From Bacteroidota bacterium (GTDB taxonomy: Bacteria > Bacteroidota > Ignavibacteria > UBA10030 > SZUA-254), in assembly GCA_049515655.1 (NCBI GenBank), contig JBEKTW010000015.1, positions 23,320 through 87,319 of the forward strand: a stretch of 64,000 bases of DNA, read 5' to 3'. Positions within the stretch are counted from its first letter, which is position 1, and each line of letters starts with the position of its first letter. The notes under the pieces were generated by a model, which saw nothing but the letters and a program-made list of their open reading frames with translations, made no database searches and was not told the origin of the DNA. Of the stretch, positions 26,497 to 54,268 are shown in pieces. Both the position numbers and the translations under genes were made by a program.

Positions 26497-26499
26497 GAA

Positions 26500-35979: not shown

Positions 35980-35991
35980 TAGAACAAAGGA

Positions 35992-36447: not shown

Positions 36448-37523
36448 TACTGCGATTGAAAAAAATATACTCGTGGATCGACGAACGGGTGCAGCTCGAA
36501 GACGTGGTCAATTTTATGGGCAAGAAATATGTGCCCCTCCACAGCCATTCGATCTGGTACTACTTCGGCGGTGTGTCGCTCTTTCTGTTCATCATCCAGG
36601 TTGTCACCGGCATTCTTCTTCTGCTCTACTACAAGAGTGGTGAGGAGTTCGCGTTTGAGAGCATTCAGTTCATCATGTCGAAAGTCGAATTCGGCTGGCT
36701 CATACGTTCCATTCACAGTTGGACCGCGAACCTGTTCATCCTGGCGGCGATGGTTCATATGTTCAGCGTGTATTTCGGGAAAGCCTACCGCAAACCCCGA
36801 GAGGTGACATGGCTAACGGGCATGCTGATGTTCTTTCTCGCGCTGGGCTTCGGTTTCAGCGGGTACCTTCTGCCCTGGAACGAACTCGCATTCTTCGCGA
36901 CGAAAGTCGGCACGGACATCGCCGGTGTGGTTCCCCTCGTCGGCAAACCGATGATGATATTTCTCAGAGGCGGGGAAGAAGTCACGGGCGCGACCCTCTC
37001 CCGCTTCTTTGGTTTTCATGTGGCGGTCTTGCCCGGGTTATTTACCGTGCTCCTTGGAATCCATCTTCTTCTTGTGCAGCGCCAGGGTATGAGCGAGCCA
37101 ATTGAAACCGAGCCTGGAGCGGGTGTCGAACGAAGGACAATGCCGTTCTTTCCGAATTTTCTGCTGAGAGACCTGTTGCTCTGGCTTATCGTCCTGAATC
37201 TGCTCGCGATACTTGCGGTCTTTTTCCCTTGGGAATTGGGAAGGAAAGCCGACCCGTTTGCACCGGCGCCGGCAGGTATCCGGCCCGAGTGGTATTTCCT
37301 GTTCATGTTCCAAACGCTGAAGTTCATTCCGGCAAAAATGCTGTTCCTCGACGGAGAGGTGCTTGGCATAGGCCTCTTCGGTCTGGGGGGACTCTTGTGG
37401 CTACTGGTTCCCTTCTGGGATAGAAAAAGCTCTCGGGGTGAACAGAATCGCTTCATCAATTACATCGGACTGTTCATCGTTCTGTACATTATGATCTTCA
37501 CAGTACTGGGGTGGATCTTATGA
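36444..37523 (+). CDS. Cytochrome b of a Rieske/cytochrome b complex (b6-like, fused to subunit IV)
   Basis: Four His ligands, SGYLLPW, PEWY Qo motif. Confidence 0.93.
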
Positions 37524-38998
37524 GCCGGAAAATTTCATGCGCGATAGCAGTCATCACCTCCGTACTCCTCGGGAGTAATCCCGCAGTTGCAGGAGACCAG
37601 TGTGTCACATGTCACGAGACCCTGGGTGACAAACCGTCGGAGCTGTTCAAACACGATGTGCATGCTGCGAAAGGAATCTCCTGTGCTGGATGTCACGGGG
37701 GAAATGCGAAGGCGGAAGAGATGGAGCAAGCGATGGATAAAAGCGCCGGGTTTATCGGCGTGCCGAAGGGGGATGATATCTCCAGGGCCTGCGCGAGCTG
37801 CCATTCGAATGCCGAAAAGATGAAAGCATTGGGGTCATCGCTTCCGACCAACCAGTGGGAAATGCTGCAGGCAAGCGTTCACGGGAAGCTTGCCGTCTCC
37901 GGCAAAGAGCATATTGCACAATGTATCACATGCCATAACGCCCACGGCATCGTTTCGGTGAAGAACCCTGAATCCCCGGTGTATCCGCTAAACGTCGTAA
38001 TAACCTGCACGAAATGTCATGCGGATGCGGCGTTCATGCGATCGTACAATCCATCGCTGCCGATCGACCAACTGGAAAAATACCGGACGAGCGTGCATGG
38101 CGTTCGAAACGCCGGAGGTGATGCCAAACCCGCGGAGTGTGCAAGTTGCCACGGCAGCCACGACATTCGGTCGGCGAAAGACGCGAAGTCACGCGTCTAT
38201 GCGGTCAACCTTCCATCAACCTGTGCCTCCTGCCACAGCAATGCAGAGTACATGAAGGAATACAAAATACCGACAGATCAATTTGAGAAATTCTCAAGAA
38301 GCGTACACGGCATCGCATTGCTTCAGAAGCATGACCTCGGCGCTCCAGCGTGCAATTCGTGCCACGGCAACCATGGGGCCACGCCGCCGGGCGTGGAGTC
38401 GGTGTCGAAAGTCTGCGGGACATGTCATGCGCTCAATGCGGACCTCTTCTCATCGAGCCCGCACAAGAAAGCGTTCGATGAGAAGCATCTTCCCGAATGT
38501 GAAACGTGTCACAGCAGTCATGAGATCGTTGCAGCGACGAGTAAGCTCCTCGGTGTCACGCCCGATGCGGTGTGCAGCCGGTGCCACCATGAGAATGAGA
38601 CTGGAAAGGGATTTGTTGTCGCACGAACGATGCGATTGTTGACCGACAGCCTTGAATCATCGGAGATTCGCGCTGCGTCGCTTCTTGACGAGGCCGAACA
38701 AAAGGGAATGGAAGTTTCCGAAGCCAAGTTCAAGCTCCGCGATGCGCACCAGGCGCGGCTGCAGTCACGAACAATGGTGCATTCATTTGATGAGGGTAAG
38801 TTCCGTGACGTCATTTCAAAGGGGTTGACGGTGGCATCGTCGGTCGGGAGTGAAGGACAGCATGCGGTCGACGAGTATTATTTCCGGAGATGGGGCCTCG
38901 GCATTGCGACGCTGATCATTACAATCGTCGGCGTATCATTATACCTCACCATTAAGAGAATTGAAGCTAGACAACGCGCGAAGAAATCACTGTCATGA
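37520..38998 (+). CDS. 11-heme cytochrome c with C-terminal TM anchor
   Basis: Signal peptide, 11 CxxCH, C-terminal TM; ATGA overlap with cytochrome b. Confidence 0.9.
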
Positions 38999-39010: not shown

Positions 39011-41269
39011 ATGAATGTGGGACAAGTAAGCGTATGGGTTGCGTTCCTGGCCGCTGGGGCGAACGCGTATTTCTTTTACAGGGATGGGAGGAATAGTTCT
39101 CGATCGAGGCAGGCGATCTCCACCGGTATCGCCAAAACCGCGTCGCATCGTCTTTACTGGATTATGCTTCTAGCCGGTGCTGCGGCGTCGGGAATCCTCA
39201 TCGAGTTGCTGCTCACCCATCAATTTCAGTATTCCTACGTTGCTCACTATAGCTCGCGGTCGCTTCCCCTTTTCTACCTCATCTCTGCATTTTGGGCAGG
39301 CCAGGAAGGGACATTCCTTCTCTGGGCGTTGATGGTCTCGGTGATGGGATGGGTGTTTATAAAGACTTCGGAGAACGAAGACGGCTTTGCAATGTCGGTG
39401 GTGAGCGGGTATTGTGCCTTTCTCTACCTGTTGTTGATTGTAAAAAGTCCGTTTGAGATGACATCAACAATTCCGGAAGACGGCGCGGGTCTTAATCCAC
39501 TGCTGCAAAATCCTTGGATGGTCGTTCATCCTCCAATATTGTTCATGGGATATGCCGCAACGGTGTTCCCGTTTGCGCTCGTTGTCTCTGCTCTTGCCCG
39601 ACGTAACACCGGACACTGGTTTGAATCGGGCTTCGTATGGTCGATCTTTGCGACGCTCACACTGGGCGCCGGAATCATCATCGGCGGGTTTTGGGCGTAC
39701 GAAGTGTTGGGCTGGGGCGGATACTGGGGATGGGACCCGGTGGAAAACTCCTCGCTGGTTCCGTGGTTGGTACTGCTGGCATTGATTCATGGCTTCCTCG
39801 TGCAGAGGGCCAGAGGCTCGCTGGTGCGGACGAATATGTTCCTTGCCATTTTTGCGTTTCTGCTTGTGCTTTACGCGACATTCCTGACACGCAGCGGTAT
39901 ACTGGCTGATTTCTCCGTCCATTCGTTCGTCGACCTCGGCATCAGCAACTACCTCATCGGTGTGATGGTCGTCGGCGCCGCCCTGGGCTTGGGATGGTTC
40001 GCAGTTCGGTTCAGAGACTTCACGTCCCCCAGGATTCCACTCTCAGGACTCAATAGGGAGATTACGTTGTTACTCGGTTTGTGGGTGCTAGTTCTGGGCG
40101 CTCTCTTCACGTTCGTCGGAATGTCTTCGCCGATTCTCACCGGGCTTTTCGGGAAAGCATCGCAGGTGGACACCTCCTTTTATAACAAGGTCAATCTCCC
40201 GGTCGCGATCGGCATCGCGTTGTTGCTTGGCGTCACCCCGTTTCTTGGGTGGACGGAAGAGAACAAGTGGGGGTTCGCCAAACGGCTTTCCATGCCGCTC
40301 TCGTTGACTGTTCTCACGTGTGTCATCGCATATGTCGCGGGAGTGACGACGGCCGCACTGCTCGCGTTCGTCGGGTCGGCATCCTTCGGGCTCATAAGCA
40401 ATGTTGTGATTGCCTTCCGGAAATATCGGTCGGGTTGGTTGACGCTGGGTGGCCCGATCACCCATATCGGTACAGGTCTGCTCCTCATCGGAATCATCGG
40501 CTCCGGGAGCTTTGACGAGACCAGACAAACGGTTTTGCGGCTCAATGAACCCCAGACTATTTTCGGCTACCAGTGCACGTTCAAAGGATCGGCACTATCT
40601 TCCGACCAGAGAACACAAATACAGATTGAAGTGTCGGATGGAAGGAATACGTACGCTGCAAATCCGAAGTTGTTTTTCAGTACCTATAATCAGTCGATGC
40701 TTCGCGAGCCCGATATCAAGATATTTCCGATGAAGGATTTATATATCTCTCCGATTGAATTACGATCGTCGCAGGTCGAAAGTCCCCACATAACCCTGGA
40801 GATCACAAAGGGCGAGAAGAAGACCGTTGGGGGATACCAGATAGAATTCGTTCGATTTGAAACAGGCCAACACAGTCAACCGGGAAATATGTCCGTCGGG
40901 GCTGTTCTGAACGTGAGCCTTCAGGGCGAAACCCATGAAGTCACTCCGACCATGACGATCAATGAACAAGGAGAGCGCAATCTCATTCCGGCAGATTTGC
41001 CTGCCGTCCCCAACATGGGGCAGGGCTCGGCCAAACCGCAGGTTGCGCTGACGGGCATGAGCGTGGAACAGAAAAAAGTAATGCTTGAACTTCTCGGCTT
41101 TGATGAGCACGCCGGCGCCCTTGCAGTTCAAGAGCTCGTGGTTGAAATCAGCACCAAACCGCTGATGATGGTTGTTTGGACTGGCGTAATGCTCATCATT
41201 GCCGGAACCGCCATTGCACTGAAACGCAGGCTGACGAAGAATACGTTGTCGCAGGACCCTACCCGATGA
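39011..41269 (+). CDS. ccmF: Cytochrome c maturation heme lyase CcmF
   Basis: WAGQEG, GLNPLLQ..HPP, WGGYWGWDPVEN, TRSG..SVHSF. Confidence 0.93.
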   Translation: MNVGQVSVWVAFLAAGANAYFFYRDGRNSSRSRQAISTGIAKTASHRLYWIMLLAGAAASGILIELLLTHQFQYSYVAHYSSRSLPLFYLISAFWAGQEGTFLLWALMVSVMGWVFIKTSENEDGFAMSVVSGYCAFLYLLLIVKSPFEMTSTIPEDGAGLNPLLQNPWMVVHPPILFMGYAATVFPFALVVSALARRNTGHWFESGFVWSIFATLTLGAGIIIGGFWAYEVLGWGGYWGWDPVENSSLVPWLVLLALIHGFLVQRARGSLVRTNMFLAIFAFLLVLYATFLTRSGILADFSVHSFVDLGISNYLIGVMVVGAALGLGWFAVRFRDFTSPRIPLSGLNREITLLLGLWVLVLGALFTFVGMSSPILTGLFGKASQVDTSFYNKVNLPVAIGIALLLGVTPFLGWTEENKWGFAKRLSMPLSLTVLTCVIAYVAGVTTAALLAFVGSASFGLISNVVIAFRKYRSGWLTLGGPITHIGTGLLLIGIIGSGSFDETRQTVLRLNEPQTIFGYQCTFKGSALSSDQRTQIQIEVSDGRNTYAANPKLFFSTYNQSMLREPDIKIFPMKDLYISPIELRSSQVESPHITLEITKGEKKTVGGYQIEFVRFETGQHSQPGNMSVGAVLNVSLQGETHEVTPTMTINEQGERNLIPADLPAVPNMGQGSAKPQVALTGMSVEQKKVMLELLGFDEHAGALAVQELVVEISTKPLMMVVWTGVMLIIAGTAIALKRRLTKNTLSQDPTR

Positions 41270-41390
41270 GGTGGGCGACTCTCGCTGTATATCGACCACG
41301 GAAGTTTACTGATATTTATCGTGTGGAAGAGAGCGGCCATGCGCAATGTGATTCATAGGATATTCGTTGTGTCGGTTCTGTATGCGGTCG

Positions 41391-42893
41391 ATGTTTAGCA
41401 AGCTCTTTTCATCCCTCGCGAAGAAAATCTTCTTCGCCGTTGGAGCAGCACTCTCCATTTCGGGGGGTATCTTTGTGTACGTTGCCCATCAAACCGGCTA
41501 CATGATGCTCGAATCGCAGGTGCGTGAAAAAGCCCACGATATTGCCACCGTCAGCGAAGCCGTTCTCGCCACTGCGATGACCGAAGAGAAGCACAATCAC
41601 CTACGCGAATTCCTCCAGGCATTGAATTCCTCCCATCAGTTCGCCGACGTGTTCATCCTGCGGCGGGACGGCACGGTGTACTGCGGCACGGATACTCTCC
41701 ATCAGGAGAAAGACTTTTCGCTGGCGCAATTTGGCGATACCGCTCAATGGTCCTCGGAAAGATTTATTTCAAGAACCGAGCAGGGCTCAACCTACGAGTA
41801 CATAGTCACGCCGATCGTCAAATCTCCATCGTGTTACCGGTGCCACACGCTGCCGGAGCCCAACAGAGGTTATCTGACGGTAAAACTTTCGATGGACGAA
41901 GTGCGGGCAACCGCGCTCAAACACCGCGCAACGAACATTCTCATGATCATCGGTACTTTCTTTGGAGTGGGCGGTGTTATCATCATAACTCTTCTTTTTG
42001 TCATTGTCCGGCCGATGAGAAGTATCCATCGGCAGATCAAACATCTCGAGGGTGAGCTGGAAAGCGTGGAACGCGGTGAGCAGGGTCAGTTTTCACAGCT
42101 CCAGGTCCCGTCTTCAAAAGATGAGATTTCGGACCTGATCGTCGCGTTCAACAGACTTACGCGGAGGTTGAACGAGGCTCACGGGAAATTACACGACTTA
42201 CACCAGAAAGAGCTGGAGCATGCCGACAGGCTCGCGAGCACCGGTGTTATGGCCGCGAGTGTTGCGCACGAAATACGAAATCCCGTCGCCGGTGTGCTCG
42301 GGGCACTGCAGGTTTTTGAACACGAGGTTCCCGAAGGAGACGAACGAAAAGAGGTTCTCAAAGAGATGAAACTACAATTGGACCGGGTCAATCAGGCAGT
42401 CAACGATCTCCTGAGTTACGCCCGGCCTACTCCCCCTGTGTACGAGGAATTTTCCATCAACGAGGTGATCCAGAAAACCGTTTCGCTTCTTTCCCGGCAG
42501 CTCAAGGGAAGGCAAATTGACATTCAACTGAGATTGTCGGATAAGAAGGCCGTCATTTCAGCCGACAAGAAACAGGTTCAGCAAGTGTTGTGGAATGTAA
42601 TCCTGAACGCCCTCCAGGCGATGGATACCACCGGCACGCTTATCATCGAATCGTTGCCGGAAGACTCGTTTGTCAAGATCCGTGTCAGCGACACCGGCAA
42701 GGGAATCCCGCTGGAGCTTGCCGACCGTGTGTTTGAACCGTTTTTCACAACGAAGCACAAAGGGACCGGGCTCGGTATGACTATCTCCAAACGCATAATC
42801 GAGCAGCATAAGGGAGCCATTTCAATCGTTAGCCAGGTCAACCAGGGGACAACGGTGACGCTTGTCATGCCGTTGCACGAAGAACATGGGTAA
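41391..42893 (+). CDS. Membrane sensor histidine kinase with periplasmic heme-c motif and HAMP domain
   Basis: 2 TM, CYRCH between them, AHEIRNP H-box; start uncertain (41367/41382/41391). Confidence 0.9.
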   Translation: MFSKLFSSLAKKIFFAVGAALSISGGIFVYVAHQTGYMMLESQVREKAHDIATVSEAVLATAMTEEKHNHLREFLQALNSSHQFADVFILRRDGTVYCGTDTLHQEKDFSLAQFGDTAQWSSERFISRTEQGSTYEYIVTPIVKSPSCYRCHTLPEPNRGYLTVKLSMDEVRATALKHRATNILMIIGTFFGVGGVIIITLLFVIVRPMRSIHRQIKHLEGELESVERGEQGQFSQLQVPSSKDEISDLIVAFNRLTRRLNEAHGKLHDLHQKELEHADRLASTGVMAASVAHEIRNPVAGVLGALQVFEHEVPEGDERKEVLKEMKLQLDRVNQAVNDLLSYARPTPPVYEEFSINEVIQKTVSLLSRQLKGRQIDIQLRLSDKKAVISADKKQVQQVLWNVILNALQAMDTTGTLIIESLPEDSFVKIRVSDTGKGIPLELADRVFEPFFTTKHKGTGLGMTISKRIIEQHKGAISIVSQVNQGTTVTLVMPLHEEHG

Positions 42894-42899: not shown

Positions 42900-44270
42900 A
42901 TGCGCGGCGAAACTATCCTCATCGTTGACGACGAAAAACTGATCCGCTGGTCCCTTCAGCAGGAACTCACAAAGGCGGGCTTTAGCGTCTTGAGCGCAGA
43001 AACGACCAAGCAGGGGCTATCGTTGCTCAAAGAGCGTGAACCCGACCTCATGATTCTCGACCAACTTCTCCCCGATGGCACGGGGATTGACGTCCTGCGG
43101 GAAATCAAGAGCTCGGGGGTTGTTCTGCCCGTCATAATGCTTACAGCGATCGACCGGTCCGACATTGCCGTGCAGGCTATGAAGTTGGGCGCAGTCGATT
43201 ACGTGACCAAACCGGTCAACATCGACGAATTGAAAATCGTTATTGAAAGAGAACTCGAAGCGACCAGACTTAAACGGCAGATGGCGCATTTTCTCAGGCA
43301 GCAGGAAAAGAGCTATGGCTTCTGCGGCATGATCGGTTCTTCTCCGCAAATGCAAAAGGTATTCGATACGATCACGAGGATTGCCCAAAGCAGCGGGACA
43401 ACGGTTTTGATCACGGGAGAAAGTGGAACGGGGAAAGAACTAGCCGCCAAAGCCATTCATTTTCTGGGCGCCCGCCGGGACAATCCGTTGATCACGGTGA
43501 ATTTCTCCGCAATGGCCGAAACAATCATTGAGAGTGAGCTGTTCGGACATGAGAAAGGGGCATTCACCGATGCAAGAAATCAGAAAAAAGGGGTTTTTGA
43601 GCTTGCGCACAAGGGAACCATTTTTCTGGATGAAATAGGAGACGTTTCACTGAAAGTTCAGGTGAAACTGCTTCGTGTGCTCGAACAGAAATCGTTCCAG
43701 CGCGTCGGCGGAACTTCGGACATTACCGTGGATGTTCGCATCATCGCTGCGACCAACAGATCTCTTGAATCGCGGCTGGCAGAAGAAAAGTTCCGGGCCG
43801 ATCTCTACTACCGGCTCAACGTGGCGAGTGTTCATCTGCCTCCGCTCCGGGAACGCGGTGAAGATATCGTCCTGTTGGCAGAATATTTCCTTCAGGAATT
43901 TAACACGAAATTCCATAAGGAGTTCAAACGACTTGCCGAGGAAACAAAGGAATTGTTCTCCGGCTATCATTGGCCGGGCAATGTGAGAGAGATGAGGAAT
44001 GTGCTGGAGCGGGCAATTCTGTTGTGGGACGACGACGTCATCCAACCGCACCATATCGAATTTCCACGGCTTCATCAACCCCCCCCGCCGTCGTTTGACC
44101 CGGGACTCGGAGCAGCAGCAGGGAATGTCTCCCTTTATGAGTTGGAGAAACAAGCGCTCATCCAGGCTTTGACAAAAACCAACCAAAACCAGTCTCGAGC
44201 GGCAAAGTTGTTGAAAATCAGCCGTGATACGCTTCGCTACAAGATGAAGAAATATGGCCTACTCACGTAG
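42900..44270 (+). CDS. Sigma54-dependent NtrC-family response regulator
   Basis: REC, GESGTGKE, GAFTDA, WPGNVRE, Fis HTH. Confidence 0.94.
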   Translation: MRGETILIVDDEKLIRWSLQQELTKAGFSVLSAETTKQGLSLLKEREPDLMILDQLLPDGTGIDVLREIKSSGVVLPVIMLTAIDRSDIAVQAMKLGAVDYVTKPVNIDELKIVIERELEATRLKRQMAHFLRQQEKSYGFCGMIGSSPQMQKVFDTITRIAQSSGTTVLITGESGTGKELAAKAIHFLGARRDNPLITVNFSAMAETIIESELFGHEKGAFTDARNQKKGVFELAHKGTIFLDEIGDVSLKVQVKLLRVLEQKSFQRVGGTSDITVDVRIIAATNRSLESRLAEEKFRADLYYRLNVASVHLPPLRERGEDIVLLAEYFLQEFNTKFHKEFKRLAEETKELFSGYHWPGNVREMRNVLERAILLWDDDVIQPHHIEFPRLHQPPPPSFDPGLGAAAGNVSLYELEKQALIQALTKTNQNQSRAAKLLKISRDTLRYKMKKYGLLT

Positions 44271-44457: not shown

Positions 44458-44865
44458 ATGAATCCCCTGACGAAAACCGACAAAAAGGAAAGTTTCCGAA
44501 AAGCAGAACGCGCGATTCTCATCGTTGACGACGAACCGTTGGTGTGCTGGTCATTGAAAAATGCCCTGGAAAGGGCCGGGTTCGAGGTCACGACCACTGA
44601 ATCTGGAGAAGCGGCAATCCAACTGTTGAAAGATTCTTTCTTTGATCTTATCATCACCGACATGAACCTTCCGAGCAGGGATGGTTTTGAGGTTGCCCGG
44701 GCTGGGCTGGGTGGGCCCAAGCAGGTCCCTGTCATCATGGTTACCGCCTATGGGGATGAGTCAGCACGAGAGAGAGCTGAAAGGATGGGCGTAAGTTACG
44801 TTGTTGACAAACCTTTCGATCTGAGTGAGATGGTTAATCTGGCGAGGCAGCTCATCTGTAGTTGA
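44458..44865 (+). CDS. Stand-alone response regulator receiver protein
   Basis: ILIVDDE, ITDMNLP, VTAYG, KPFD; start placed downstream of the sigma54 promoter. Confidence 0.85.
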   Translation: MNPLTKTDKKESFRKAERAILIVDDEPLVCWSLKNALERAGFEVTTTESGEAAIQLLKDSFFDLIITDMNLPSRDGFEVARAGLGGPKQVPVIMVTAYGDESARERAERMGVSYVVDKPFDLSEMVNLARQLICS

Positions 44866-45043: not shown

Positions 45044-45059
45044 TGGCACAAGGCTTGCA
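45044..45059 (+). promoter_or_regulatory. Sigma54 promoter
   Basis: TGGCACAAGGCTTGCA, 57 nt upstream of ATG with SD aaaggag. Confidence 0.8.
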
Positions 45060-45115
45060 CATGATTCGCATAGTTGAATTTCCCATACAACAATTACAAA
45101 CAAAGGAGACATAGT

Positions 45116-47878
45116 ATGAAGCAATCAACTACAGTTTTTCTTGTAGGATTGCTGATTTTTGCTGTTACTGGCACTGCGATGGCGACAGTTCCGACGGCAA
45201 GAATAGTGATCAGGGCTGCCTCAACGGGGCTGATCGCAAGCCATCCGAGCGAATTCAATGCAATATCGGACGGCTTGCCGAATGTCGGCCGTGGCAGCAG
45301 GGTGTGGCTTGAAGCGGCTGCCTTGGAAGGCACTGTCCCGAGCACACTCCATTACGACACGCTGACTGGCGCAACGTGGCGAGTCATCTCTGCCCCCGCC
45401 CACTCGGTTGCAACTATTCGGGCGACGGATACGGCTAATGGCTTAAAAGGCTTTACGGCGATGTTCGTTCCCGATTCATTAGGTCAATATCAAATCGGCT
45501 TGACCGTTACCACGTTGAATGGCACAAGCGCTGAAGTGACGGAGTACATTAACTCCGCAAATTATGTAGGCGTTGGGACAATCATCGGCAATTCGCCAAC
45601 CGCTCCGGAGTGCGGCGCTTGTCATAATGGAAACGTGGTGGCAGACAAAGTGACACCGTGGCAAGGAACAGCGCATGCGACGATGTTTTCGAACAGCATT
45701 GATGGGAAGAATGGGGCCTACATGAGTTTCTGCATTTCGTGTCACACGACGGGGTACAACGCCACTCCAACGGCCGTGAATAATGGCTTCGATGATCGCG
45801 CCACAGCCTATGGTTGGCATTTCCCCGACACGATAAAGGCCGGCAACTGGGATTATATGAAGGCCAACTATCCGGAAGTTGCAAAGTTGGCGAATATCCA
45901 GTGCGAAGACTGCCATGGACCTGGAAGTTTACACCTCGGTGCAATGAACAAGAATCAAATCGCAGTGAGTTGGTCGTCTGAGATGTGCGGACACTGCCAT
46001 GATGCCCCGCCGCATCACACGAAGAACGAGCAATGGAATATGACGGCCCATGCTATCTCCACGGAGGAGGGCGTGGACATTGAGGCCATGAATCGTGCCC
46101 CTTGTGCCCAATGCCACACTTCACAGGGTTTCGTCGATGTGACAATCGACGGCAACACTGATGCAGCACCGTATACGAATGTTCAGCCGGTCGGCTGCAT
46201 TGGCTGTCATGATCCCCATGACGCATCCCATCCAGCGCAACTCCGTCGCGCATCTCTGGCAGACGCGTGCACCGGATGCCACCTGACGCGCATCAGCTCT
46301 CGCGGTTTACATAGTAATACTCAGGGACCTATGCTTGCAGGAGCGAGTGCTATACCGTACAACGGGCAGGGTGGCATCGCCGGCGGAATCGATAACTGGA
46401 GTGGATGGCAGCTTGCCGGATACATGTATCCCAATTCCGCGCACTCGAGCATCACCGACAAATGCGTCACATGTCACATGGCAACGGTTCCGGCAGATTC
46501 TCTGGTAGGTAAGCTCGGCGACCATTCATTCAAAGTTGCCTACGACCAGGACAGCACGCACACGATCTTTAACACAAACGGTTGTGTGTGCCATGGTACC
46601 GGTGGAGTTGCCCCGGTCACCCAGACCTACGTCGAGCAGAGTCAGGCCAAAATAAATGCCCTTCTTGATACGCTTGCGACGTTGTTGCCTCAAAAGAGCG
46701 GTGTCGTTCGCAGTCACAATGATACATCGTATCACGCATGGACACCGTTAAAGATTGCAGGAGCGTATAATTACTATTTCGTTAACAACGATGGTAGCTT
46801 TGGCGTTCACAACCATAATTACGCAACAGCATTGCTAACCTCGTCTATCGAGCAGTTGAGACTTGTCGCCGGTGCAGCGACTATTGCCTCCATCAAAGAT
46901 GTTCCGAACGATCAGGGAAAACAGGTTCAGATTGTTTGGAATATATTCCCGACGGAACAGAGCAGCATTGATCCCGTGACACAGTATGGTGTTTGGAGAC
47001 AAGACGCTCTCTCTAGCTCAAACGTGTCAACAGTGAAATTCCATTCTTTCAGAGAGATGCTGTCCAAAGGAACGGTCGGTTCACGGTATGCCGTCAACGG
47101 ATATGTGTGGACGTATGTCGGTTATGTGCCTGCTGCCAAGCAGAGCATGTATTCCTTTGTTGCACCGACACTGTTTGATTCAACGATCAGCGCGGGCATG
47201 AAGTGGACATACTTCTATGTGACTGGATTAACCAACAACGGTGTTGTGTATAGTACGATGCCGGACAGCGGTTATTCGGTCGACAACTTGGCTCCAGCGC
47301 CACCCAGCGGAATCGGTGCACGGATCATTGCAAATACCGTCCACCTTGGGTGGAGGATATCGTTAGATCAGGACTTCAAGTACTTTGCGGTCTACCGGGG
47401 AACATCTCCCGATTTCAACCCGCATGGAACAAGTCCGCTGGCGACGACATCCGACACATCCTACGTTGATCAGAATGTTTCAGCCGGTGCGACGTATTAC
47501 TATAAACTATCTGCATTTGACTTCTCGGGTAATGAGAGCCAATATTCACCCGCTCTGACGGTAGTCGTGCTTGGTGTTGGCGAGAATAACGGCGCTCCAA
47601 GGGAGTACGCCCTTGCTCAAAACTATCCGAATCCGTTTAACCCATGGACTGAGATCAGATATCAACTTCCTGAAGTCGCTCACGTGAAAATCACAGTGTA
47701 CAACACACTCGGTGTGCAAGTTGCTACGCTGGTCGACAGGAACGAAGAAGTCGGCTATTATACCGTCACATGGGACGGGAATGACAATCGGGGTAATGTT
47801 GTTGCAAGCGGCATTTACCTCTATAAGATGGAAGCCGGTTCGTACTCGGTAGCGAAGAAGATGATCTTCATGAAGTAA
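45116..47878 (+). CDS. Multiheme cytochrome c (8 CxxCH + 1 CxCH) with Ig/FN3-like domains and T9SS type-A C-terminal sorting domain
   Basis: Signal peptide, heme region ending DGSFGVHN, DNLAPAPP..YYYKLSAFD, QNYPNPFNP..VASGIYLYKM..KKMIFMK. Confidence 0.9.
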   Translation: MKQSTTVFLVGLLIFAVTGTAMATVPTARIVIRAASTGLIASHPSEFNAISDGLPNVGRGSRVWLEAAALEGTVPSTLHYDTLTGATWRVISAPAHSVATIRATDTANGLKGFTAMFVPDSLGQYQIGLTVTTLNGTSAEVTEYINSANYVGVGTIIGNSPTAPECGACHNGNVVADKVTPWQGTAHATMFSNSIDGKNGAYMSFCISCHTTGYNATPTAVNNGFDDRATAYGWHFPDTIKAGNWDYMKANYPEVAKLANIQCEDCHGPGSLHLGAMNKNQIAVSWSSEMCGHCHDAPPHHTKNEQWNMTAHAISTEEGVDIEAMNRAPCAQCHTSQGFVDVTIDGNTDAAPYTNVQPVGCIGCHDPHDASHPAQLRRASLADACTGCHLTRISSRGLHSNTQGPMLAGASAIPYNGQGGIAGGIDNWSGWQLAGYMYPNSAHSSITDKCVTCHMATVPADSLVGKLGDHSFKVAYDQDSTHTIFNTNGCVCHGTGGVAPVTQTYVEQSQAKINALLDTLATLLPQKSGVVRSHNDTSYHAWTPLKIAGAYNYYFVNNDGSFGVHNHNYATALLTSSIEQLRLVAGAATIASIKDVPNDQGKQVQIVWNIFPTEQSSIDPVTQYGVWRQDALSSSNVSTVKFHSFREMLSKGTVGSRYAVNGYVWTYVGYVPAAKQSMYSFVAPTLFDSTISAGMKWTYFYVTGLTNNGVVYSTMPDSGYSVDNLAPAPPSGIGARIIANTVHLGWRISLDQDFKYFAVYRGTSPDFNPHGTSPLATTSDTSYVDQNVSAGATYYYKLSAFDFSGNESQYSPALTVVVLGVGENNGAPREYALAQNYPNPFNPWTEIRYQLPEVAHVKITVYNTLGVQVATLVDRNEEVGYYTVTWDGNDNRGNVVASGIYLYKMEAGSYSVAKKMIFMK

Positions 47879-47942: not shown

Positions 47943-48100
47943 ATTATTTCGATAAGGGCGGAGATGTACTCATTATTCAAATTTTACGAAATGGAACCGA
48001 ATGACCGAGAAGAAAATAGTCCTTTCCTGCCGGGACTGGAAGCTTGCTCCTTGTGGAGGAATTTGCTAGATTCTCAGGCTAACGCATATTGTTGGAAGAT

Positions 48101-50119
48101 ATGAGATTCCTGGTCATTTCATTTTTCTGCTGCTCTCTTTTTGTCGCTTCTGCGGAAGCTCAGCAACGATCCGGCGGATATCTCCAGCAGGAGAAGAGTC
48201 TGATGGACGCCGAAGCTCGGCGCCACCAAGTGCTTACTCCACAAAACACAGTTGCAAGCCTCGCCGGCGATTCTTACGATGTCACCTACTACCGCCTCAA
48301 TCTGCGAATGGCGGCAGGTCATTCGATTTCCGCTGGTCTTTGGGGTGAGGTAACCGTATCCGCTTTTGTGAGTCACGCCAGCCTTGATACATTCGTCCTG
48401 GATCTGATGAAACCGATGACAGTGGATTCAGTGAGAGTTGAGGGGGTTCCCTCATCGTTTGAGCAGGATCCTGTTTCTGTTCGAATCGCACTTGGCCGCG
48501 GTTACGGTCCCGGCGAGCGGGTCACGGTCGATGTCTTTTATGAAGGCATTCCTCATCCGACGGAATTTGGGAGCTTTGAGATCGACACGGGTCGGACACC
48601 CGCTTGGATCTGGTCGCTCAGCGAACCCTACGGCGCGAGAGATTGGTGGCCGTGCAAGAATTCTCCCGGCGATAAAGCGGACTCCGCAGACATTATCGTA
48701 ACCTGCGATTCGACATTCAAGGTCGGTTCCAACGGTAAGCTCATTTCCGTTCTGAACAACGAAGACGGGACATCAACCTGGCACTGGGCAGAACGATACC
48801 CGATCTCTTCCTATCTTATTTCGGTAGCGCTCACGAATTTTGCTTCCTTTTCAAACTGGTTTAAATATTCGCCGACCGATTCGATGGAAATACTGAATTT
48901 CGTTCTGCCTGAAGATCTGTCGCAGGCCCGGGCAAATCTTCCTAGAACGGTTGACATGCTTACGATCTATTCGAGACTGTTCGGCTTGTATCCATTCATC
49001 AAAGAGAAGTACGGACACTCGGAGTTTGGATGGGGCGGGGGGATGGAACACCAGACAATGACTTCCGTCTCCGCCAGCGGTTTCGGAGAATACGTTATAT
49101 CCCATGAGCTGGCACATCAATGGTTCGGAGATATGATTACCTGCCGGACCTGGTCCGACATCTGGCTGCATGAAGGCTTCGCAGTGTATTGCACCGCGCT
49201 TTATTATGAAAAGGAATACGGCGTCGATTCATACCGGGGATTTATGGAAGACGAGATGTCCGGGGCAAAAAGCGGGGTGGGAACGATTTTCGTACAAGAC
49301 ACAACCTCGGTGGGCAATATCTTCAACGGCAACCTCGAGTACCAGAAAGGTGCAGCGGTTCTGCACATGTTGAGGCATATCCTTGGAGACAGCACGTTTT
49401 TTCATGCGATGTATAACTATGCGAATACTCCGGCATTGAGGTATTCCACTGCGATGACGGAGGATTTCAAGGCGGCGTGTGAAAATGTCTCCGGCAAGAA
49501 CCTCGATTATTTTTTCAACGAATGGATCTACGGTGAGAACTATCCACAGTACACGTACTCCTGGTCTTCACACCCCTCTTCGGATAGTTACACCGTGACA
49601 GTGCGCGTCCGTCAAGGCACCGGAACGGCAAATCCCCCTTTTTTCACAATGCCGGTTGATTTGAAGTTCACGTCTTCCGGCTGGGATACCGTCGTAACGG
49701 TGTTCAATGATTCTCAACAGCAATCGTTCACGGTGGGGATTTCGCATGATCCGACGTCGGTTCTTCTTGACAACGACGGCTGGATCCTGAAGGATGCGGC
49801 CCTCGTGCCGGACGGTGTGTTGAGACCCGCTCCGGTAGTTTCGAACTTTTCACTGGAACAGAATTATCCGAATCCGTTTAATCCTTCAACGGTCATTTGC
49901 TACCAAATTCCAAAGGCAACGCGGGTTACTATCATCATTTATGACCTGCTCGGTGCGGAAGTGGCGATGCTCGTCGACGGCCATCAGGAATCCGGAGACC
50001 ATTCGGTTATCTGGAACGGCGTGGATCGGTTCGGTCATCAGGTTGCCAGCGGAATTTACTTGTATAAGATTGAAGCGGGCACAATTCAGTCAGCGAAGAA
50101 AATGGTATATCTCAGGTAG
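48101..50119 (+). CDS. M1-family zinc aminopeptidase with T9SS C-terminal sorting domain
   Basis: GGMEH, HELAHQW..WLHEG, QNYPNPFNP CTD; TTGCTC-17-TAGATT promoter at 48044-48072. Confidence 0.92.
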   Translation: MRFLVISFFCCSLFVASAEAQQRSGGYLQQEKSLMDAEARRHQVLTPQNTVASLAGDSYDVTYYRLNLRMAAGHSISAGLWGEVTVSAFVSHASLDTFVLDLMKPMTVDSVRVEGVPSSFEQDPVSVRIALGRGYGPGERVTVDVFYEGIPHPTEFGSFEIDTGRTPAWIWSLSEPYGARDWWPCKNSPGDKADSADIIVTCDSTFKVGSNGKLISVLNNEDGTSTWHWAERYPISSYLISVALTNFASFSNWFKYSPTDSMEILNFVLPEDLSQARANLPRTVDMLTIYSRLFGLYPFIKEKYGHSEFGWGGGMEHQTMTSVSASGFGEYVISHELAHQWFGDMITCRTWSDIWLHEGFAVYCTALYYEKEYGVDSYRGFMEDEMSGAKSGVGTIFVQDTTSVGNIFNGNLEYQKGAAVLHMLRHILGDSTFFHAMYNYANTPALRYSTAMTEDFKAACENVSGKNLDYFFNEWIYGENYPQYTYSWSSHPSSDSYTVTVRVRQGTGTANPPFFTMPVDLKFTSSGWDTVVTVFNDSQQQSFTVGISHDPTSVLLDNDGWILKDAALVPDGVLRPAPVVSNFSLEQNYPNPFNPSTVICYQIPKATRVTIIIYDLLGAEVAMLVDGHQESGDHSVIWNGVDRFGHQVASGIYLYKIEAGTIQSAKKMVYLR

Positions 50120-50356: not shown

Positions 50357-50746
50357 ATGAAAAGCAAAATCATTACCGCGAGTGTGGTTATCGTTGCGGC
50401 TCTGGTGTTCGGCGCACTCTCATTCGTGGAAAGCAATGTTGAGTACACGGACATGCAGACGGCAATGTCTTCGCACAAAAGGGTGCAGGTAAAAGGTGCA
50501 TGGGTGAGGGAAAAGGAATCGACGTTTGACGCCGACAAAGGCCAATTTGTGTTCTTCATGAAAGACGATAACGGCCAGGAAACGAAGGTCGTCTTTGATG
50601 GAGCAAAGCCGAACAATTTTGAGATCGCCAATGCGATTGTCGTGAAGGGACGCTATCAGGATGGGTATTTTCACGCGAGCGACATTCTGACGAAGTGTCC
50701 ATCGAAGTACGAGGCCAATTCAGATACAGTAAAGAAAACTCTCTAA
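50357..50746 (+). CDS. ccmE: Heme chaperone CcmE, CxxxY variant
   Basis: N-terminal TM, FHASDILTKCPSKY. Confidence 0.9.
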   Translation: MKSKIITASVVIVAALVFGALSFVESNVEYTDMQTAMSSHKRVQVKGAWVREKESTFDADKGQFVFFMKDDNGQETKVVFDGAKPNNFEIANAIVVKGRYQDGYFHASDILTKCPSKYEANSDTVKKTL

Positions 50747-50756: not shown

Positions 50757-52073
50757 GTGAAATTCTTTCAACGGTTTTTGCTTCTTGTCTCCCTTCTTGC
50801 TGTTTCCTCGTTGACAAACGCTCAGCTCGTCAACGGCCGGTTCAGCACCTCCGTTTATGCGTGGCAGCAATTTGACACGGTCGGCGTTTCTCAGACCTTG
50901 GCTCGGGGATTCCAGACCCTGCAACTCGAAGTATCGCAAGGGGATGTTTCACTGCGCACATCGATGTATGGCGCTACGAATTTTTCACAGTCGTTTGGTA
51001 ATGATGGACTTATTCGCATCAACAACCTGTATCTGAGATGGAAAAACATCGAAGATGCAATGGATCTCAGCCTGGGGAGAATTCCTGTCTTTGCCGGTGT
51101 CGGCAACGGGACTTTGGACGGTGCCCTGATCAAGGCGCGGGGCATGGATGAACGCGTCTGGTTTACAGCCTACGGGGGGGCGAACGTTCTACCCGATCTA
51201 AAATCAATGAGTTTCAGCGACCTCGATCAAAAGTTTTTGATTGGAAGCCAGCTCATCACAACGTTGATTCCTCAGGCACGGATTGGTGTCAGTTATGTGA
51301 ACCGTCATATTCCACGGGAGAGCTATTGGGCAACACGCCCGGATTCACTTTTCAATCCAACGACCGTGCTTATTGTTCCGGATTCCCGGGCTCAGCAGGC
51401 AGTGGGAGTTGATGCCCGCTACGACCAGGATGGCGCGTATTCTGTTTACAGTCGGTATGATTATGATTTGAATTCCAAGTACACGCTTCGCGGACAGTTC
51501 GGCGCTCGCGTGCAGACTTCCGATCAACTTGCGCTCACGGGAGATTTCATCTATCGCGAGCCGTATGTTCCCTTTAATTCTTTCTTCACAGTCTTTCCGG
51601 TCTCTCCGATTCGTGAATTAGAGGGCGGTATCGAGTATTCTGTTTCGCCTTCCTATCATGCGTTTGGAAGATTCGCGTACGTCGGATATGTCGACGCGCT
51701 CAGCCGGCGTATTACTGTGGGAATGAACGCAGACTACGGCAGCATCAGCTATGCGGGTAGCAGCGGATATGCCGGCATCCTGAATTCATTTTATGTGCAG
51801 GGGATGTACCCGTTGTTGGATCGTACGCTTGTTCCCACGGTCGGATTTTCTTATTCCAAATACCGTTTGAGTGAAGAAGCGACCCAGGATGACAACGTGT
51901 TTGCCGGATCGTTTGGCGCGGTCGTTCGACCGTCGTCGCTCATTTCGGTCGACGCACAGGTGCAATGGCTGCACAACGACATTGCCAGTCATGATGTCCG
52001 GCTGCTTGTGAACGTGAACTATTGGTTTAATCACAATTTTAAGTTCCTCCAGCACAAGGAGGCGAGCGAATGA
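50757..52073 (+). CDS. Putative outer-membrane beta-barrel (porin of a porin-cytochrome conduit)
   Basis: Signal peptide, alternating aromatic beta-strand pattern throughout, no hemes, ATGA overlap with a multiheme gene. Confidence 0.7.
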   Translation: MKFFQRFLLLVSLLAVSSLTNAQLVNGRFSTSVYAWQQFDTVGVSQTLARGFQTLQLEVSQGDVSLRTSMYGATNFSQSFGNDGLIRINNLYLRWKNIEDAMDLSLGRIPVFAGVGNGTLDGALIKARGMDERVWFTAYGGANVLPDLKSMSFSDLDQKFLIGSQLITTLIPQARIGVSYVNRHIPRESYWATRPDSLFNPTTVLIVPDSRAQQAVGVDARYDQDGAYSVYSRYDYDLNSKYTLRGQFGARVQTSDQLALTGDFIYREPYVPFNSFFTVFPVSPIRELEGGIEYSVSPSYHAFGRFAYVGYVDALSRRITVGMNADYGSISYAGSSGYAGILNSFYVQGMYPLLDRTLVPTVGFSYSKYRLSEEATQDDNVFAGSFGAVVRPSSLISVDAQVQWLHNDIASHDVRLLVNVNYWFNHNFKFLQHKEASE

Positions 52074-53122
52074 TGCAAAGGTATATCGCTGCCGCTTTGT
52101 TCCTGGCCCTGTTCGTCGCTGTTTCCGTTGCGATGAAAGAGCCTATGCGGAAATACTGGCAGGAGGAAGACCACTCCAAGTTTATTAAGTTTTCGCATAC
52201 GTTCCACGTAAGGGAGCAGAGTATCGCCTGCGTAGATTGTCACACGGATGCCAAAGCGAGCAAGCTTTCGTCGGATAATCTTCTGCCGAATCACGAAAGC
52301 TGCAAGACGTGTCATGATGAGCAAGTTGCGGGCAATTGTACATATTGCCATACGACGAAGGATAATATTCTTCCGATAAAACGACCGGAACGCGAACTGA
52401 TATTTTCTCATGAGCTCCACGCAGGGAAACAAAATATCAATTGTGAAACGTGCCACGCCGGAACGGACACTGTCACCTTTGCAACGAGCAGGAACATGCC
52501 AGCGATGACGGCGTGTGTGAGCTGTCACGAGCAGAAAAAGATTTCAACGAATTGTGAAACCTGCCATCGCGACTTTGTTACGCTCGTTCCCGAGGATCAC
52601 CTTACAACGGATTTCCGCAAAGAGCACAAGAAGCTCACCCGACTGGGCATGAAAGATGTAACCTGTAAAACGTGTCACTCGGAGAATTTCTGTCAGGATT
52701 GCCACACGGGGACGGAGTTGCACGGCTTCTCGGGCACGAAAGACTTAATGGCCGAGCCGGCACCCAGCCCATTCGCAAAGGATTCACCGAAGCAATTGAG
52801 ACTGCAAAAAGCTCATGGGCTGAATTACCGGTTCACCCATGGCGTGGAGGCAAAATCGAAGGCGCTCGACTGCGCATCATGCCACGAACAACAAACGTTT
52901 TGCGTGACGTGTCACGAAGCCGGCGGCAACATTAACCAGCTGAAATTCAAGCCGGCATCGCACATTGCGGCCGGGTTCACGACCATCGGTAAAGGGTCCG
53001 GCGGCGGACGGCATGCTGAGCTCGCCCGGCGCGACCTCGAAAGCTGTATGTCGTGCCACGACGTGCAGGGAAATGACCCGACATGCATGTTATGTCACAC
53101 AGGAAATGGCGGAGTACGATAA
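52070..53122 (+). CDS. Periplasmic 12-heme cytochrome c (c3/c7-like repeats)
   Basis: 12 CxxCH, FSHxxH motifs, signal peptide. Confidence 0.9.
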   Translation: MMQRYIAAALFLALFVAVSVAMKEPMRKYWQEEDHSKFIKFSHTFHVREQSIACVDCHTDAKASKLSSDNLLPNHESCKTCHDEQVAGNCTYCHTTKDNILPIKRPERELIFSHELHAGKQNINCETCHAGTDTVTFATSRNMPAMTACVSCHEQKKISTNCETCHRDFVTLVPEDHLTTDFRKEHKKLTRLGMKDVTCKTCHSENFCQDCHTGTELHGFSGTKDLMAEPAPSPFAKDSPKQLRLQKAHGLNYRFTHGVEAKSKALDCASCHEQQTFCVTCHEAGGNINQLKFKPASHIAAGFTTIGKGSGGGRHAELARRDLESCMSCHDVQGNDPTCMLCHTGNGGVR

Positions 53123-53126
53123 CTGC

Positions 53127-54179
53127 ATGAGAAAGCTTGAATCCATCTGTGTATCGTTTGCTCTTGCCGGTCTTATGCTCCATCCCGGATGCACGAAACT
53201 GGACGAAGGATTGCCGGCGCCGACAAGCGGTCAAGTGCAGGTTCATCCGGCCGGGTGGGGCGACACCAACTCGACGAGTTTTCACGGCAAATTCTTGAGC
53301 GCAAAAGCATGGCAATTGAGCAACTGCACGCCATGCCATGGGGACGCGCTTGGGGGCGGGACGGCCGGAGTGTCCTGCTTCACATGCCATAAATCCTATC
53401 CCCACAGCGCCGGATGGACAGATTCAACAACGGCAGGACTCCACGGAAATTTCATCCAGGCATCGGGATGGGATATGCGTCAATGCCAGACGTGCCACGG
53501 AGTCACCTACGCAGGAGGACGAGTGAACGTTTCGTGCCTGACGTGCCACACAAAACCAAACGGTCCCGAGAACTGCACAACTTGTCACGGTGGAATCAAC
53601 GCGGCTCCGCCAAGAGATCTCAGCGGGAATACGTCGACAACTGCACGTGGCGTCGGTGCGCATCAGGCTCATCTGCTCGGAAGCTCTCTCGCCTCACCGT
53701 TGCTCTGCTCCGAGTGCCATAATGTTCCCTCGTCGGTGTATCAAGCCGGGCACATTGGTTCTACCGGTCATGCTGAGATACACTTCAACGGTCCGCTCGG
53801 CACGTTGAAAACAGCCGGCGGGACGTTTGTTCCAGCGCCGTCGTATGACGTAACAACGGGCAAGTGCAGCAATACATTCTGTCACGGCAACTGGCGTCAC
53901 GAGGAATCGACTTCTGCGTACCAATGGGCGTTCAAGGATACGGTCATGGCAGGCGCAAACTATTCTCCTTCATGGACAGGAGGTTCTTCCGAATCTGCGT
54001 GCGATAGTAGTTGTCACGGTTTGCCGCCGGCTGGGCACCTCCAGACGGCAGACAAGTGCGCTCAGTGTCACACCGGGGTTGTGGACTTCAGCGGCAACAT
54101 CATCGACTCGACGAAACACATTAACGGAAAAGTAGACGTCTTCGGGCAAGATACAACGATTTTCCATTCTCAACTGTGA
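53127..54179 (+). CDS. Probable lipoprotein multiheme cytochrome c (7 CxxCH + CX4CH + CX3CH)
   Basis: Signal ending LHPGC, CSNTFCHG, CDSSCHG, HINGKVD. Confidence 0.85.
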   Translation: MRKLESICVSFALAGLMLHPGCTKLDEGLPAPTSGQVQVHPAGWGDTNSTSFHGKFLSAKAWQLSNCTPCHGDALGGGTAGVSCFTCHKSYPHSAGWTDSTTAGLHGNFIQASGWDMRQCQTCHGVTYAGGRVNVSCLTCHTKPNGPENCTTCHGGINAAPPRDLSGNTSTTARGVGAHQAHLLGSSLASPLLCSECHNVPSSVYQAGHIGSTGHAEIHFNGPLGTLKTAGGTFVPAPSYDVTTGKCSNTFCHGNWRHEESTSAYQWAFKDTVMAGANYSPSWTGGSSESACDSSCHGLPPAGHLQTADKCAQCHTGVVDFSGNIIDSTKHINGKVDVFGQDTTIFHSQL

Positions 54180-54239
54180 AAGGAAGCACGAAGTAGTTTG
54201 TCATAATTGAAAAGCTGAACGCGCATTCTGCCGGTCTTG

Positions 54240-54268
54240 AGCCATTCCCCCCACGGAATGGCTTTTTT
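54240..54268 (+). terminator. Intrinsic terminator closing the ccmDE-porin-cytochrome operon
   Basis: agccattcc-loop-ggaatggct then T-tract. Confidence 0.75.

Follow-up and report, generated by a model that had tools for sequence, protein, structure and literature searches.

A nine-heme cytochrome of the OcwA family with a type IX secretion sorting domain, encoded in a cytochrome island of an Ignavibacteria genome

How multiheme cytochromes are brought to the cell exterior is understood in detail only in a handful of Proteobacteria and Gram-positives. MtrC and OmcA of Shewanella are decaheme lipoproteins, of a fold different from that described below, and are exported by the type II system; type IX secretion system (T9SS) substrates are folded when they cross, and attachment involves PorU and PorZ, both part of the attachment complex in Porphyromonas gingivalis. 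From Gram-positive iron reducers come two solved cell-surface cytochromes (PMC9250108, PMC6703420): the nine-heme OcwA of Thermincola potens (6I5B) and the eleven-heme OmhA of Carboxydothermus ferrireducens (6QVM), the latter associated with the S-layer (PMC9250108). OcwA has been proposed as a surface terminal reductase, with a heme core built like cytochrome c554 and NrfA and, in addition, a C-terminal three-helix bundle (PMC6703420); its hemes 2 and 5 are five-coordinate, with the non-bonding distal histidines H281/H282 and H380/H381 (PMC9250108). Here we describe an OcwA-family cytochrome that ends in a T9SS type A C-terminal domain (CTD), encoded in a stretch of 64,000 nucleotides from a Bacteroidota bacterium of the class Ignavibacteria (assembly GCA_049515655.1, contig JBEKTW010000015.1, positions 23,320 to 87,319 of the forward strand; this whole stretch is hereafter the window, and coordinates are given in its numbering).

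Anode biofilms, iron-rich springs and wastewater plants commonly harbor Ignavibacteria and their relatives, which have been credited with iron reduction from porin-cytochrome genes alone (PMC7399161, PMC11495043). Pcc-like clusters have already been reported in Ignavibacteria (PMC7399161), as has, from BLAST only, the "possible occurrence" of T9SSs in Ignavibacteriae (PMC5837995). A full-text search, with subscription journals and supplements outside its scope, found no paper linking type IX secretion with multiheme cytochromes; for T9SS together with extracellular electron transfer it gave only an unrelated review, and the T9SS literature on Ignavibacteria, judged by listing, held none on cytochromes. 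Nor do the portions consulted of the OcwA papers mention secretion, Bacteroidetes or Ignavibacteria (PMC6703420, PMC9250108). The existence of diderm relatives is already known; what the window presents is a sorting signal and a cytochrome family, each known in itself, brought together in a lineage with an atypical secretion system. An OcwA relative with a type IX tag suggests a so far undescribed route for surface respiratory cytochromes in Ignavibacteria-like bacteria, and makes the gene family a testable candidate for both the surface reductase of Ignavibacteria and their relatives and its route of export. In the reading that we favor, at a probability of roughly 0.55, the protein would be matured by the Ccm pathway, exported as a holo-cytochrome through SprA, and would act outside the cell as a terminal reductase that receives its electrons from a porin-cytochrome conduit. 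If this is true, a cofactor-loaded redox protein is added to the list of T9SS cargo, in a class that as a whole appears to retain SprA, with some 160 CTD proteins per genome, while lacking the known motor.

The gene and the parts of its product are as follows.

45116..47878, forward strand: coding sequence of the 920-residue nonaheme cytochrome with T9SS type A CTD (P0001), from calling of open reading frames (ORFs), hidden Markov models (HMMs) and alignment
45103..45108, forward strand: Shine-Dalgarno sequence AAGGAG, 7 nt upstream of the ATG at 45116
45116..45184, forward strand: Sec/SPI-type signal peptide, residues 1-23 (...TAMA/TVP), without lipobox Cys, read by eye
45188..45580, forward strand: N-terminal beta domain, weakly PKD/Ig-like, from a profile match to a PKD chain in the PDB
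45611..46594, forward strand: nine-heme core, from motifs and alignment to the OcwA heme sites
46595..46870, forward strand: helical segment with DGSFGVHN (46790-46813), aligned to the OcwA C-terminal helices
46871..47290, forward strand: beta-rich spacer, residues 586-725, of no known family in domain searches
47291..47569, forward strand: FN3-like domain, residues about 726-818, from profile matches to solved FN3 domains
47624..47866, forward strand: T9SS type A CTD, residues 837-917 (QNYPNPFNP, GIYLYK, KKM), from TIGR04183 and conservation

The enclosing ORF runs from 45074 to 47878 (+) and yields 920 residues when translated from the ATG at 45116, a start that agrees with the conservation of M1 in at least 90% of 63 aligned homologues. 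The predicted signal peptide, MKQSTTVFLVGLLIFAVTGTAMA/TVP, was read from the translation by eye and has a basic N-terminus, a 17-residue hydrophobic core and the cleavage context AMA/T. An initial annotation, made from the letters alone, had described this gene correctly apart from small overstatements. The signal peptide and the strong Shine-Dalgarno sequence that it named are both present. Its Ig-like N-terminus corresponds to a weak match of the family profile (described below) to a PKD-type chain (E 2.6e-5), but has no counterpart in Pfam, which gave nothing credible for residues 25-160 or 586-835. The motif DGSFGVHN (residues 559-566, with S561, G563, H565 and N566 invariant in the homologues) does belong to a helical segment, but lies within it rather than at its end. 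The "FN3-like spacers" come down to one FN3 domain, to which solved FN3 domains were matched at profile positions of about 711-803 with E-values from 2.9e-9 to 1.5e-6, while residues 586-725 match nothing. Finally, the CTD had been called nearly the same as that of the neighboring peptidase; the two are similar, but only 53% identical (48/90).

The spacer, FN3 domain and CTD recur outside this gene: residues 579-920 (46871-47878) are 34% identical to the C-terminus of a 1246-residue FN3/PhoD_N/Big_10 protein of the same genome (G000:C20:4764-8504, minus strand), and many other CTD proteins of the class are matched by this part as well, so that it resembles a stalk cassette in common use.

A motif scan places CxxCH sites at residues 166, 206, 263, 291, 330, 361, 385 and 450 and a ninth site, CVCH, at residues 490-493 (46583-46594), in the number initially annotated, and the 18 cysteines of the protein all sit in these nine motifs. 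Among the 63 homologues, which are 41-72% identical to the query, the two cysteines and the histidine of every site are invariant, as are eight histidines outside the motifs and M455. Spacing within the sites is less rigid. Site 1 is CxCH in five homologues, CxxCH in 42 and CxxxCH in 16; the ninth site is CxxCH in 55 of the 63, one homologue has Cx4CH there, and the seven closest relatives have CxCH, a form also kept in the metagenome loci L112 and L113 (91% and 71% identity). A literature search for such sites in cytochromes found no paper on c-type heme attachment, as judged from titles and the beginnings of abstracts. The scan found no CxxCK site in the protein.

That the protein is a nonaheme c-type cytochrome of the OcwA family follows from sequence comparison at two depths. 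Searched singly against the PDB, it matched OcwA and nothing else (E 1.6e-9). A family profile built from the 63 homologues and searched against the same database again returned OcwA first (6i5b_A; E 6.5e-34, 120.1 bits) and OmhA second (6qvm_A; E 3.5e-26), followed by the 333-residue chain of 6r2q, which we take to be MtrA (1.3e-12), NrfA (1.7e-11), octaheme nitrite reductase (2.8e-11) and MccA (2e-5); the matches to NrfA, octaheme nitrite reductase and MccA span hemes 5-9 and the helices. This order upholds the likeness to OcwA put forward as possible at the outset. The profile alignment sets sites 1 and 3-9 against heme motifs of OcwA; site 2 is paired with one only in a weak phmmer stretch. 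H300/H301 align with the distal pair H281/H282 of OcwA; at the position of the second pair, H380/H381, the protein has only H399, followed by S400, where the family consensus is HH. The Met after heme 8 and the DGSxGVHN motif are likewise paired with OcwA, and the alignment to the region of the OcwA C-terminal three-helix bundle runs through this motif and beyond.

The protein thus shares with OcwA its nine heme sites in the same order, the His pair after heme 4, the Met after the heme 8 motif and the helical segment bearing DGSxGVHN. Unlike OcwA, a 526-residue protein of a monoderm without a CTD, it adds an N-terminal beta domain, a 140-residue spacer, an FN3 domain and a T9SS CTD, and it differs also in its CxCH ninth site and in the single H399. 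OmhA belongs to the same clade of the NrfA/c554 superfamily, but has eleven hemes, an N-terminal two-heme extension, a monoderm host and no CTD. NrfA, octaheme nitrite reductase and MccA are members of the same superfamily with five or eight hemes against nine here, and neither CXXCK nor CX15CH occurs in our protein, which we do not assign to NrfA because it lacks a CXXCK site. We also place it outside the MtrC/OmcA family, because no MtrC, OmcA or UndA chain was matched by the family profile at E-values up to 1; the Pfam model MtrC-MtrF_II-IV (PF22113) scores 42.5 bits, over residues 193-342 only, which is the heme-rich stretch. In its presumed role it would resemble MtrC/OmcA with MtrAB in Shewanella and the OmcB/OmaB/OmbB Pcc of Geobacter, as a surface multiheme cytochrome fed by a porin-cytochrome conduit, but MtrC, OmcA and UndA have ten or eleven hemes and a lipoprotein signal, against nine sites and no lipobox Cys.

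The C-terminus, for which an HMM check had been proposed, scores 32.8 bits with TIGR04183 (cut-off 23) and 41.6 with FlgD_ig (cut-off 27); Por_Secre_tail (PF18962), at 25.0, stays below its cut-off of 27. Q835, N836, P838-P843, G866, G899 and Y901 are invariant in the 63 homologues. The host genome (4.10 Mb in 54 contigs, 100% complete) holds SprA, with 860 and 229 bits within one 2462-residue frame and above the curated cut-off, PorU (973.9 bits), whose gene adjoins that of PorV (252.7 bits, cut-off 250), and PorZ (262.8 bits, cut-off 260); a REC plus PglZ (PorX-like) gene directly adjoins sprA. An HMM of the family's CTD retrieved 164 CTD-bearing ORFs among the 8677 ORFs of at least 100 residues, and the cytochrome is the only one of the 164 with any CxxCH. 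Twelve ORFs of the genome have at least four CxxCH, eight of them on the window's contig. The outer-membrane half of a T9SS is therefore present and, to judge by gene content, clearly in use as a system. Like other type A CTD cargo (gingipains, RemZ, chitinase), the cytochrome combines a Sec signal with a terminal TIGR04183 domain in a genome with SprA, PorV, PorU and PorZ; unlike known cargo of this type, it is a predicted covalently heme-loaded redox protein, and its host lineage has no detectable GldKLMN. It carries a type A CTD and probably works like T9SS cargo, in a host to which we do not ascribe a canonical T9SS.

Maturation by Ccm, as initially suggested, is supported at the level of gene content by two genes of the window.

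39011..41269, forward strand: CcmF/NrfE-like heme lyase; the genome has no other CcmF homologue
50357..50746, forward strand: CcmE heme chaperone with a Cys-type site (TKCPSKY), PF03100 at 56.6 bits

The heme-binding position of this CcmE is Cys, not His, and aligns with the TKCP of the solved CcmE 2kct; its gene is placed between the CTD peptidase gene and the porin gene. We considered the CcmF-like gene as a lyase dedicated to the CxCH site and rejected the idea, since it is the sole CcmF homologue of the genome and does not stand beside the homologues in 16 related loci.

The surroundings of the gene form a cytochrome island, and the context of extracellular electron transfer that the initial annotation had invoked is borne out by its other members.

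48089..50119, forward strand: M1 metallopeptidase with T9SS CTD (TIGR04183, 32.1 bits), a neighbor also in L112 and L113
50757..52073, forward strand: 438-residue outer-membrane porin-like protein with signal peptide, of no named family, from sequence features
52070..53122, forward strand: 12-CxxCH cytochrome of 350 residues, with signal peptide, a candidate for the porin's partner in the periplasm
53127..54179, forward strand: 350-residue cytochrome with 7 CxxCH and 2 Cx3-4CH and a lipoprotein-like N-terminus (...LHPGC)
54239..54264, forward strand: intrinsic terminator after the porin-cytochrome genes, from a terminator scan
34483..38998, forward strand: NapC/NirT-like 6-heme protein, Rieske protein, cytochrome b and membrane-anchored 11-heme cytochrome
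23629..29371, forward strand: 4-heme c554-like protein, CbcL-like fusion (13 CxxCH plus b-type cytochrome), 19-heme cytochrome and b-type cytochrome

The gene run 50757-54179, with a porin-like protein and periplasmic and lipoprotein multiheme cytochromes, is a candidate for a Pcc-type layout. The nearest named Atlas clusters to the 438-residue protein are outer-membrane beta-barrels, at 0.92, a lead only; the 12-heme cytochrome matches only generic c7-type chains in the PDB, and the lipoprotein-like cytochrome has no PDB match and scores 25.2 bits with TIGR01904, below the cut-off of 27. In L112, the locus of the 91%-identical relative, the counterpart of this last gene (17586-19070, forward strand) is longer, with 494 residues and 11 CxxCH, and only residues 94-404 of the window ORF align with it; a heme-bearing N-terminal part may have been inserted in the one or deleted from the other. 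Homologues of the porin and the 12-heme cytochrome occur in four of 22 related loci (L024, L112, L113, L038), CbcL-like modules in five and the Rieske/cytochrome b/11-heme module in three.

The architecture of CbcL has been described (PMC6295460), and the same source finds CbcL/MtoC-type and porin-cytochrome modules in both metal reducers and metal oxidizers, with a direction of flow that cannot be read from sequence. A surface cytochrome of this island might by that token work inward, feeding the quinone pool with electrons obtained from a cathode, a partner cell or Fe(II) outside the cell. We think this improbable: genes for electron transfer flavoprotein (ETF) and acyl-CoA dehydrogenase, which are also found in the island, suggest organic electron donors, and it is iron reduction, not oxidation, that is mentioned for Ignavibacteria in the portions consulted of PMC7399161 and PMC11495043.

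Upstream of the cytochrome gene lie regulatory elements and genes, and downstream of it a hairpin.

45044..45059, forward strand: sigma-54 -24/-12 element TGGCACAAGGCTTGCA, 57 nt before the ATG at 45116, identical in L112
44411..44426, forward strand: second sigma-54 element TGGCACAAATCTTGCA, a near-copy found by motif scan before the receiver gene
41367..42893, forward strand: histidine kinase with one CxxCH (CYRCH, residue 156), HAMP, HisKA and HATPase, from domain HMMs
42900..44270, forward strand: NtrC-type sigma-54 activator (REC, AAA+ and Fis HTH), from domain HMMs
44458..44865, forward strand: single-domain receiver protein, with its start at ATG 44431 or 44458 and the same layout in L025-L027
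47907..47942, forward strand: terminator-like hairpin with a weak U-tract (AUUAUUU), from folding

The consensus sigma-54 promoter attributed to the gene is an exact match at 45044, and the genome supplies rpoN (408 bits) along with the NtrC-type activator gene. Exact TGGCAC-N5-TTGC occurs twice in the window against 0.18 expected, and at least twice in one of 100 shuffles. Genome-wide, the looser TGG[CT]A[CT]N5TTGC is found at 39 places in the 8.2 Mb that the two strands make up, where about 31 are estimated for uniform base composition, so that the motif taken alone is weak evidence and the weight falls on position and context. A first scan found no element within 400 nt upstream of 19 homologous ORFs. 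A wider one gave nothing for L033 or L034, and put elements some 420-435 nt upstream in L025, L026 and L027, where a receiver-like ORF lies in the interval; in L112 both promoters are kept without a single change. A kinase with one CxxCH together with an NtrC-type gene is found in six of the 22 related loci (L025, L026, L027, L033, L034 and L112), and the whole layout of one-heme kinase and NtrC-type gene, sigma-54 element, receiver ORF and cytochrome recurs in L025, L026, L027 and L112. No shared activator binding site was found upstream of the two sigma-54 promoters. The CYRCH motif of the kinase lies in a loop between two membrane segments, and the motif suggests a c-type heme sensor. Of the hairpin noted downstream, the fold is strong (-31.5 kcal/mol for an 82-nt stretch, z -4.32, with none of 200 shuffles as good), but its U-tract is weak and the terminator scan does not list it. 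Rfam and tRNA scans of the window gave nothing. A third sigma-54-like element, TGGCATATCAGTTGC, at 59982-59996 (forward strand), closely precedes the gene of a universal stress protein, at 60017.

The analysis above establishes which domains the protein has, its homology to OcwA, the outer-membrane parts of a T9SS, the Ccm genes, the promoters and the linkage of the genes; we infer from these how the cytochrome might be expressed, loaded at its nine sites, exported, anchored and coupled to electron partners, and in which direction electrons would flow. A heme-sensor kinase and an NtrC-type activator would turn on the sigma-54 promoters of the receiver and cytochrome genes. The precursor would leave the cytoplasm by Sec, and the island-encoded CcmE and CcmF would attach nine hemes in the periplasm. 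The CTD of the folded holo-protein would then be recognized, presumably by PorV, the protein would pass through SprA, and PorU would remove the CTD, after which the mature cytochrome would be fixed to the surface by PorZ-type attachment or released. Outside, the spacer and FN3 domains would hold the cytochrome away from the membrane. There it would draw electrons from a conduit made up of the 438-residue porin-like protein with the 12-heme cytochrome of the periplasm and the lipoprotein cytochrome; the quinol-oxidizing modules (CbcL-like, NapC/NirT-like and Rieske/cytochrome b) would in turn supply this conduit. The exported cytochrome would then pass the electrons on to insoluble or large acceptors such as Fe(III) and Mn(IV) oxides, humics or partner cells.

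Several findings weigh against this scheme, and the first group concerns the secretion motor. Of the set sprA/porV/porU/gldKLMN for which the initial annotation had called, SprA, PorV and PorU are present, with PorZ and a PorX-like protein besides, but GldK, GldL, GldM and GldN were not found in the genome (TIGR03525, TIGR03513, TIGR03517, TIGR03523; PF12081), and the system is on that account not a canonical Bacteroidia T9SS. In the phylum sample GldM exceeds its cut-off in 36 of 151 genomes and in none of the 36 of the class, all 36 of which have SprA. In Flavobacterium johnsoniae, substrates remain stuck on SprA when GldL is removed, the motor being needed for release (PMC10994853). With the motor missing, the CTD could be an Ig-like binding domain or tether and the cytochrome a periplasmic relay, a view to which the trapping of substrates upon motor loss lends itself and which could also draw on the higher Pfam score of FlgD_ig than of Por_Secre_tail (41.6 against 25.0 bits). 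It is nonetheless an improbable one. SprA (2456 residues), PorU, PorV and PorZ are intact, the CTD residues are invariant across phyla, and 164 CTD ORFs, among them peptidases and other likely exoenzymes, are hard to explain without export. Some other families of the sample also have SprA without a GldM match (f28, for example, with 22 of 22 against 0 of 22), from which it appears that the model may miss divergent forms.

A second group of findings concerns the chemistry of OcwA, which has two open heme sites and in vitro shows reduction of nitrite and turnover of hydroxylamine (PMC6703420), so that a role with soluble substrates stays conceivable for its relatives. The cytochrome might then act outside the cell as an enzyme on small molecules (nitrite, hydroxylamine, sulfur, or reactive oxygen or nitrogen species) rather than as a respiratory terminal reductase for solids, as its membership of the NrfA/cytochrome c554/MccA superfamily and the alignment of H300/H301 with H281/H282 would allow. 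We regard this as quite unlikely, given that the protein lacks a CXXCK site, that the second distal pair is reduced to H399 followed by S400, and that even OcwA turns over nitrite with a kcat of only 1 per minute (PMC6703420); furthermore the gene stands among a porin-cytochrome conduit and quinol oxidases, not among N- or S-cycle genes.

Three further points tell against export of a fully loaded, conduit-docked cytochrome. The ninth site, with a single residue between its cysteines, may not take heme. No consensus sigma-54 element precedes the porin genes, and co-regulation with the conduit is thus not supported. Nine of the 22 related loci have no electron-transport neighbors in the stretch compared. 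The porin itself is found in 50 of 301 sampled genomes of the phylum, all inside the class; 34 of the 35 core-positive genomes (the list being our own reading of the match table) are also porin-positive, and within the class the core was seen in 34 of the 50 genomes that have the porin and in none of the 24 that lack it, a co-occurrence counted among kin and not independent.

This pattern bears on the fate of the protein after export. By the same route it might be released to the medium or to vesicles, as a diffusible carrier or matrix cytochrome: type A CTD substrates are either released to the environment or linked to lipopolysaccharide (PMC10994853), the sequence does not discriminate between a released and an anchored fate, and the long spacer (residues 586-818) would suit a matrix protein as well. 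We consider release unlikely, if somewhat less so than the other alternatives. PorU and PorZ, of the attachment complex in P. gingivalis, pass their equivalog cut-offs, a stalk of spacer and FN3 is expected of a tethered protein, and the restriction of the core to porin-positive class genomes (34 of 35) fits a docked partner.

The cytochrome is far from confined to this genome. A search with the whole protein retrieved 1600 proteins at E-values of at most 1e-3 among 8000 candidates scored. The best 120 of the 1600 include near-full-length proteins with both the cytochrome and the CTD families, and carry source names from Ignavibacteriae, Bacteroidota, Zixibacteria, Calditrichaeota, KSB1 and one Acidobacteriota metagenome-assembled genome. 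The core alone (residues 150-590), searched against cluster representatives, matched 1681, 904 and 240 clusters at E-values of at most 1e-3, 1e-10 and 1e-30, which amounts to hundreds of metagenome clusters even at the stricter thresholds. An Atlas cluster of 1184 members, commonest in Ignavibacteriota, has Cytochrome_C7 in 100% and Por_Secre_tail in 98%, and in public annotation some members are named "T9SS type A sorting domain-containing protein" or "multiheme c-type cytochrome". In the 301-genome sample, full-length matches were found in nine genomes besides its own, and a shorter form of core plus CTD (about 670-760 residues) in many more; the core, at E-values of at most 1e-20, is in 100 of 201 class genomes, that is, in half of the sampled species, and in 57 of 100 genera. 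When genome contigs were scanned with the entire protein, CTD matches dominated the result, and only two full-length relatives were recovered.

We also make a broader proposal, put forward tentatively and with the odds somewhat against it as a whole. SprA, PorV, PorU and PorZ, without recognizable GldKLMN, may carry the folded nine-heme holo-cytochrome out and fix it to the surface as a conduit-docked terminal reductase. Extracellular electron transfer may generally take this route, both in Ignavibacteria and in those CTD-bearing relatives that are labelled Calditrichaeota, KSB1 and Zixibacteria, and a C-x-C-H site would then be loadable with heme by a Cys-type CcmE system.

Not all members of the family bear the CTD. 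Among the best 150 representatives it stands at the end in 55 and near the end in one, and is absent from 94, several of which are fragments. Other tails were seen among P0121-P0262: 12 of 128 cores end in [FY][FY]RV..P after thrombospondin-type-3-like repeats, eight of 128 end in YPxAxLR, two have a hydrophobic anchor and a basic end, and some proteins of 518-554 residues stop after the helices. NCBIfam gave no sorting-domain name for these other tails, which may be other sorting signals on the same core. The types of end cluster on a tree of the 128 cores (a quick FastTree, without taxon labels), the CTD label changing 14 times against 41.7 when shuffled. For the evolution of these cytochromes, the family sets the Gram-positive OcwA in the midst of diderm relatives whose main differences lie in the C-terminal sorting modules.

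In L113 (1991-3910, forward strand) and L024 (6610-8502, reverse strand), the OcwA-like gene adjoins one for another kind of cytochrome with a CTD, which the window's genome lacks. This second kind has 7 CxxCH in about 630 residues and scores 44-45 bits with MtrC-MtrF_II-IV, and its Por_Secre_tail score is 23.1 in L113 and 27.6, over the cut-off of 27, in L024.

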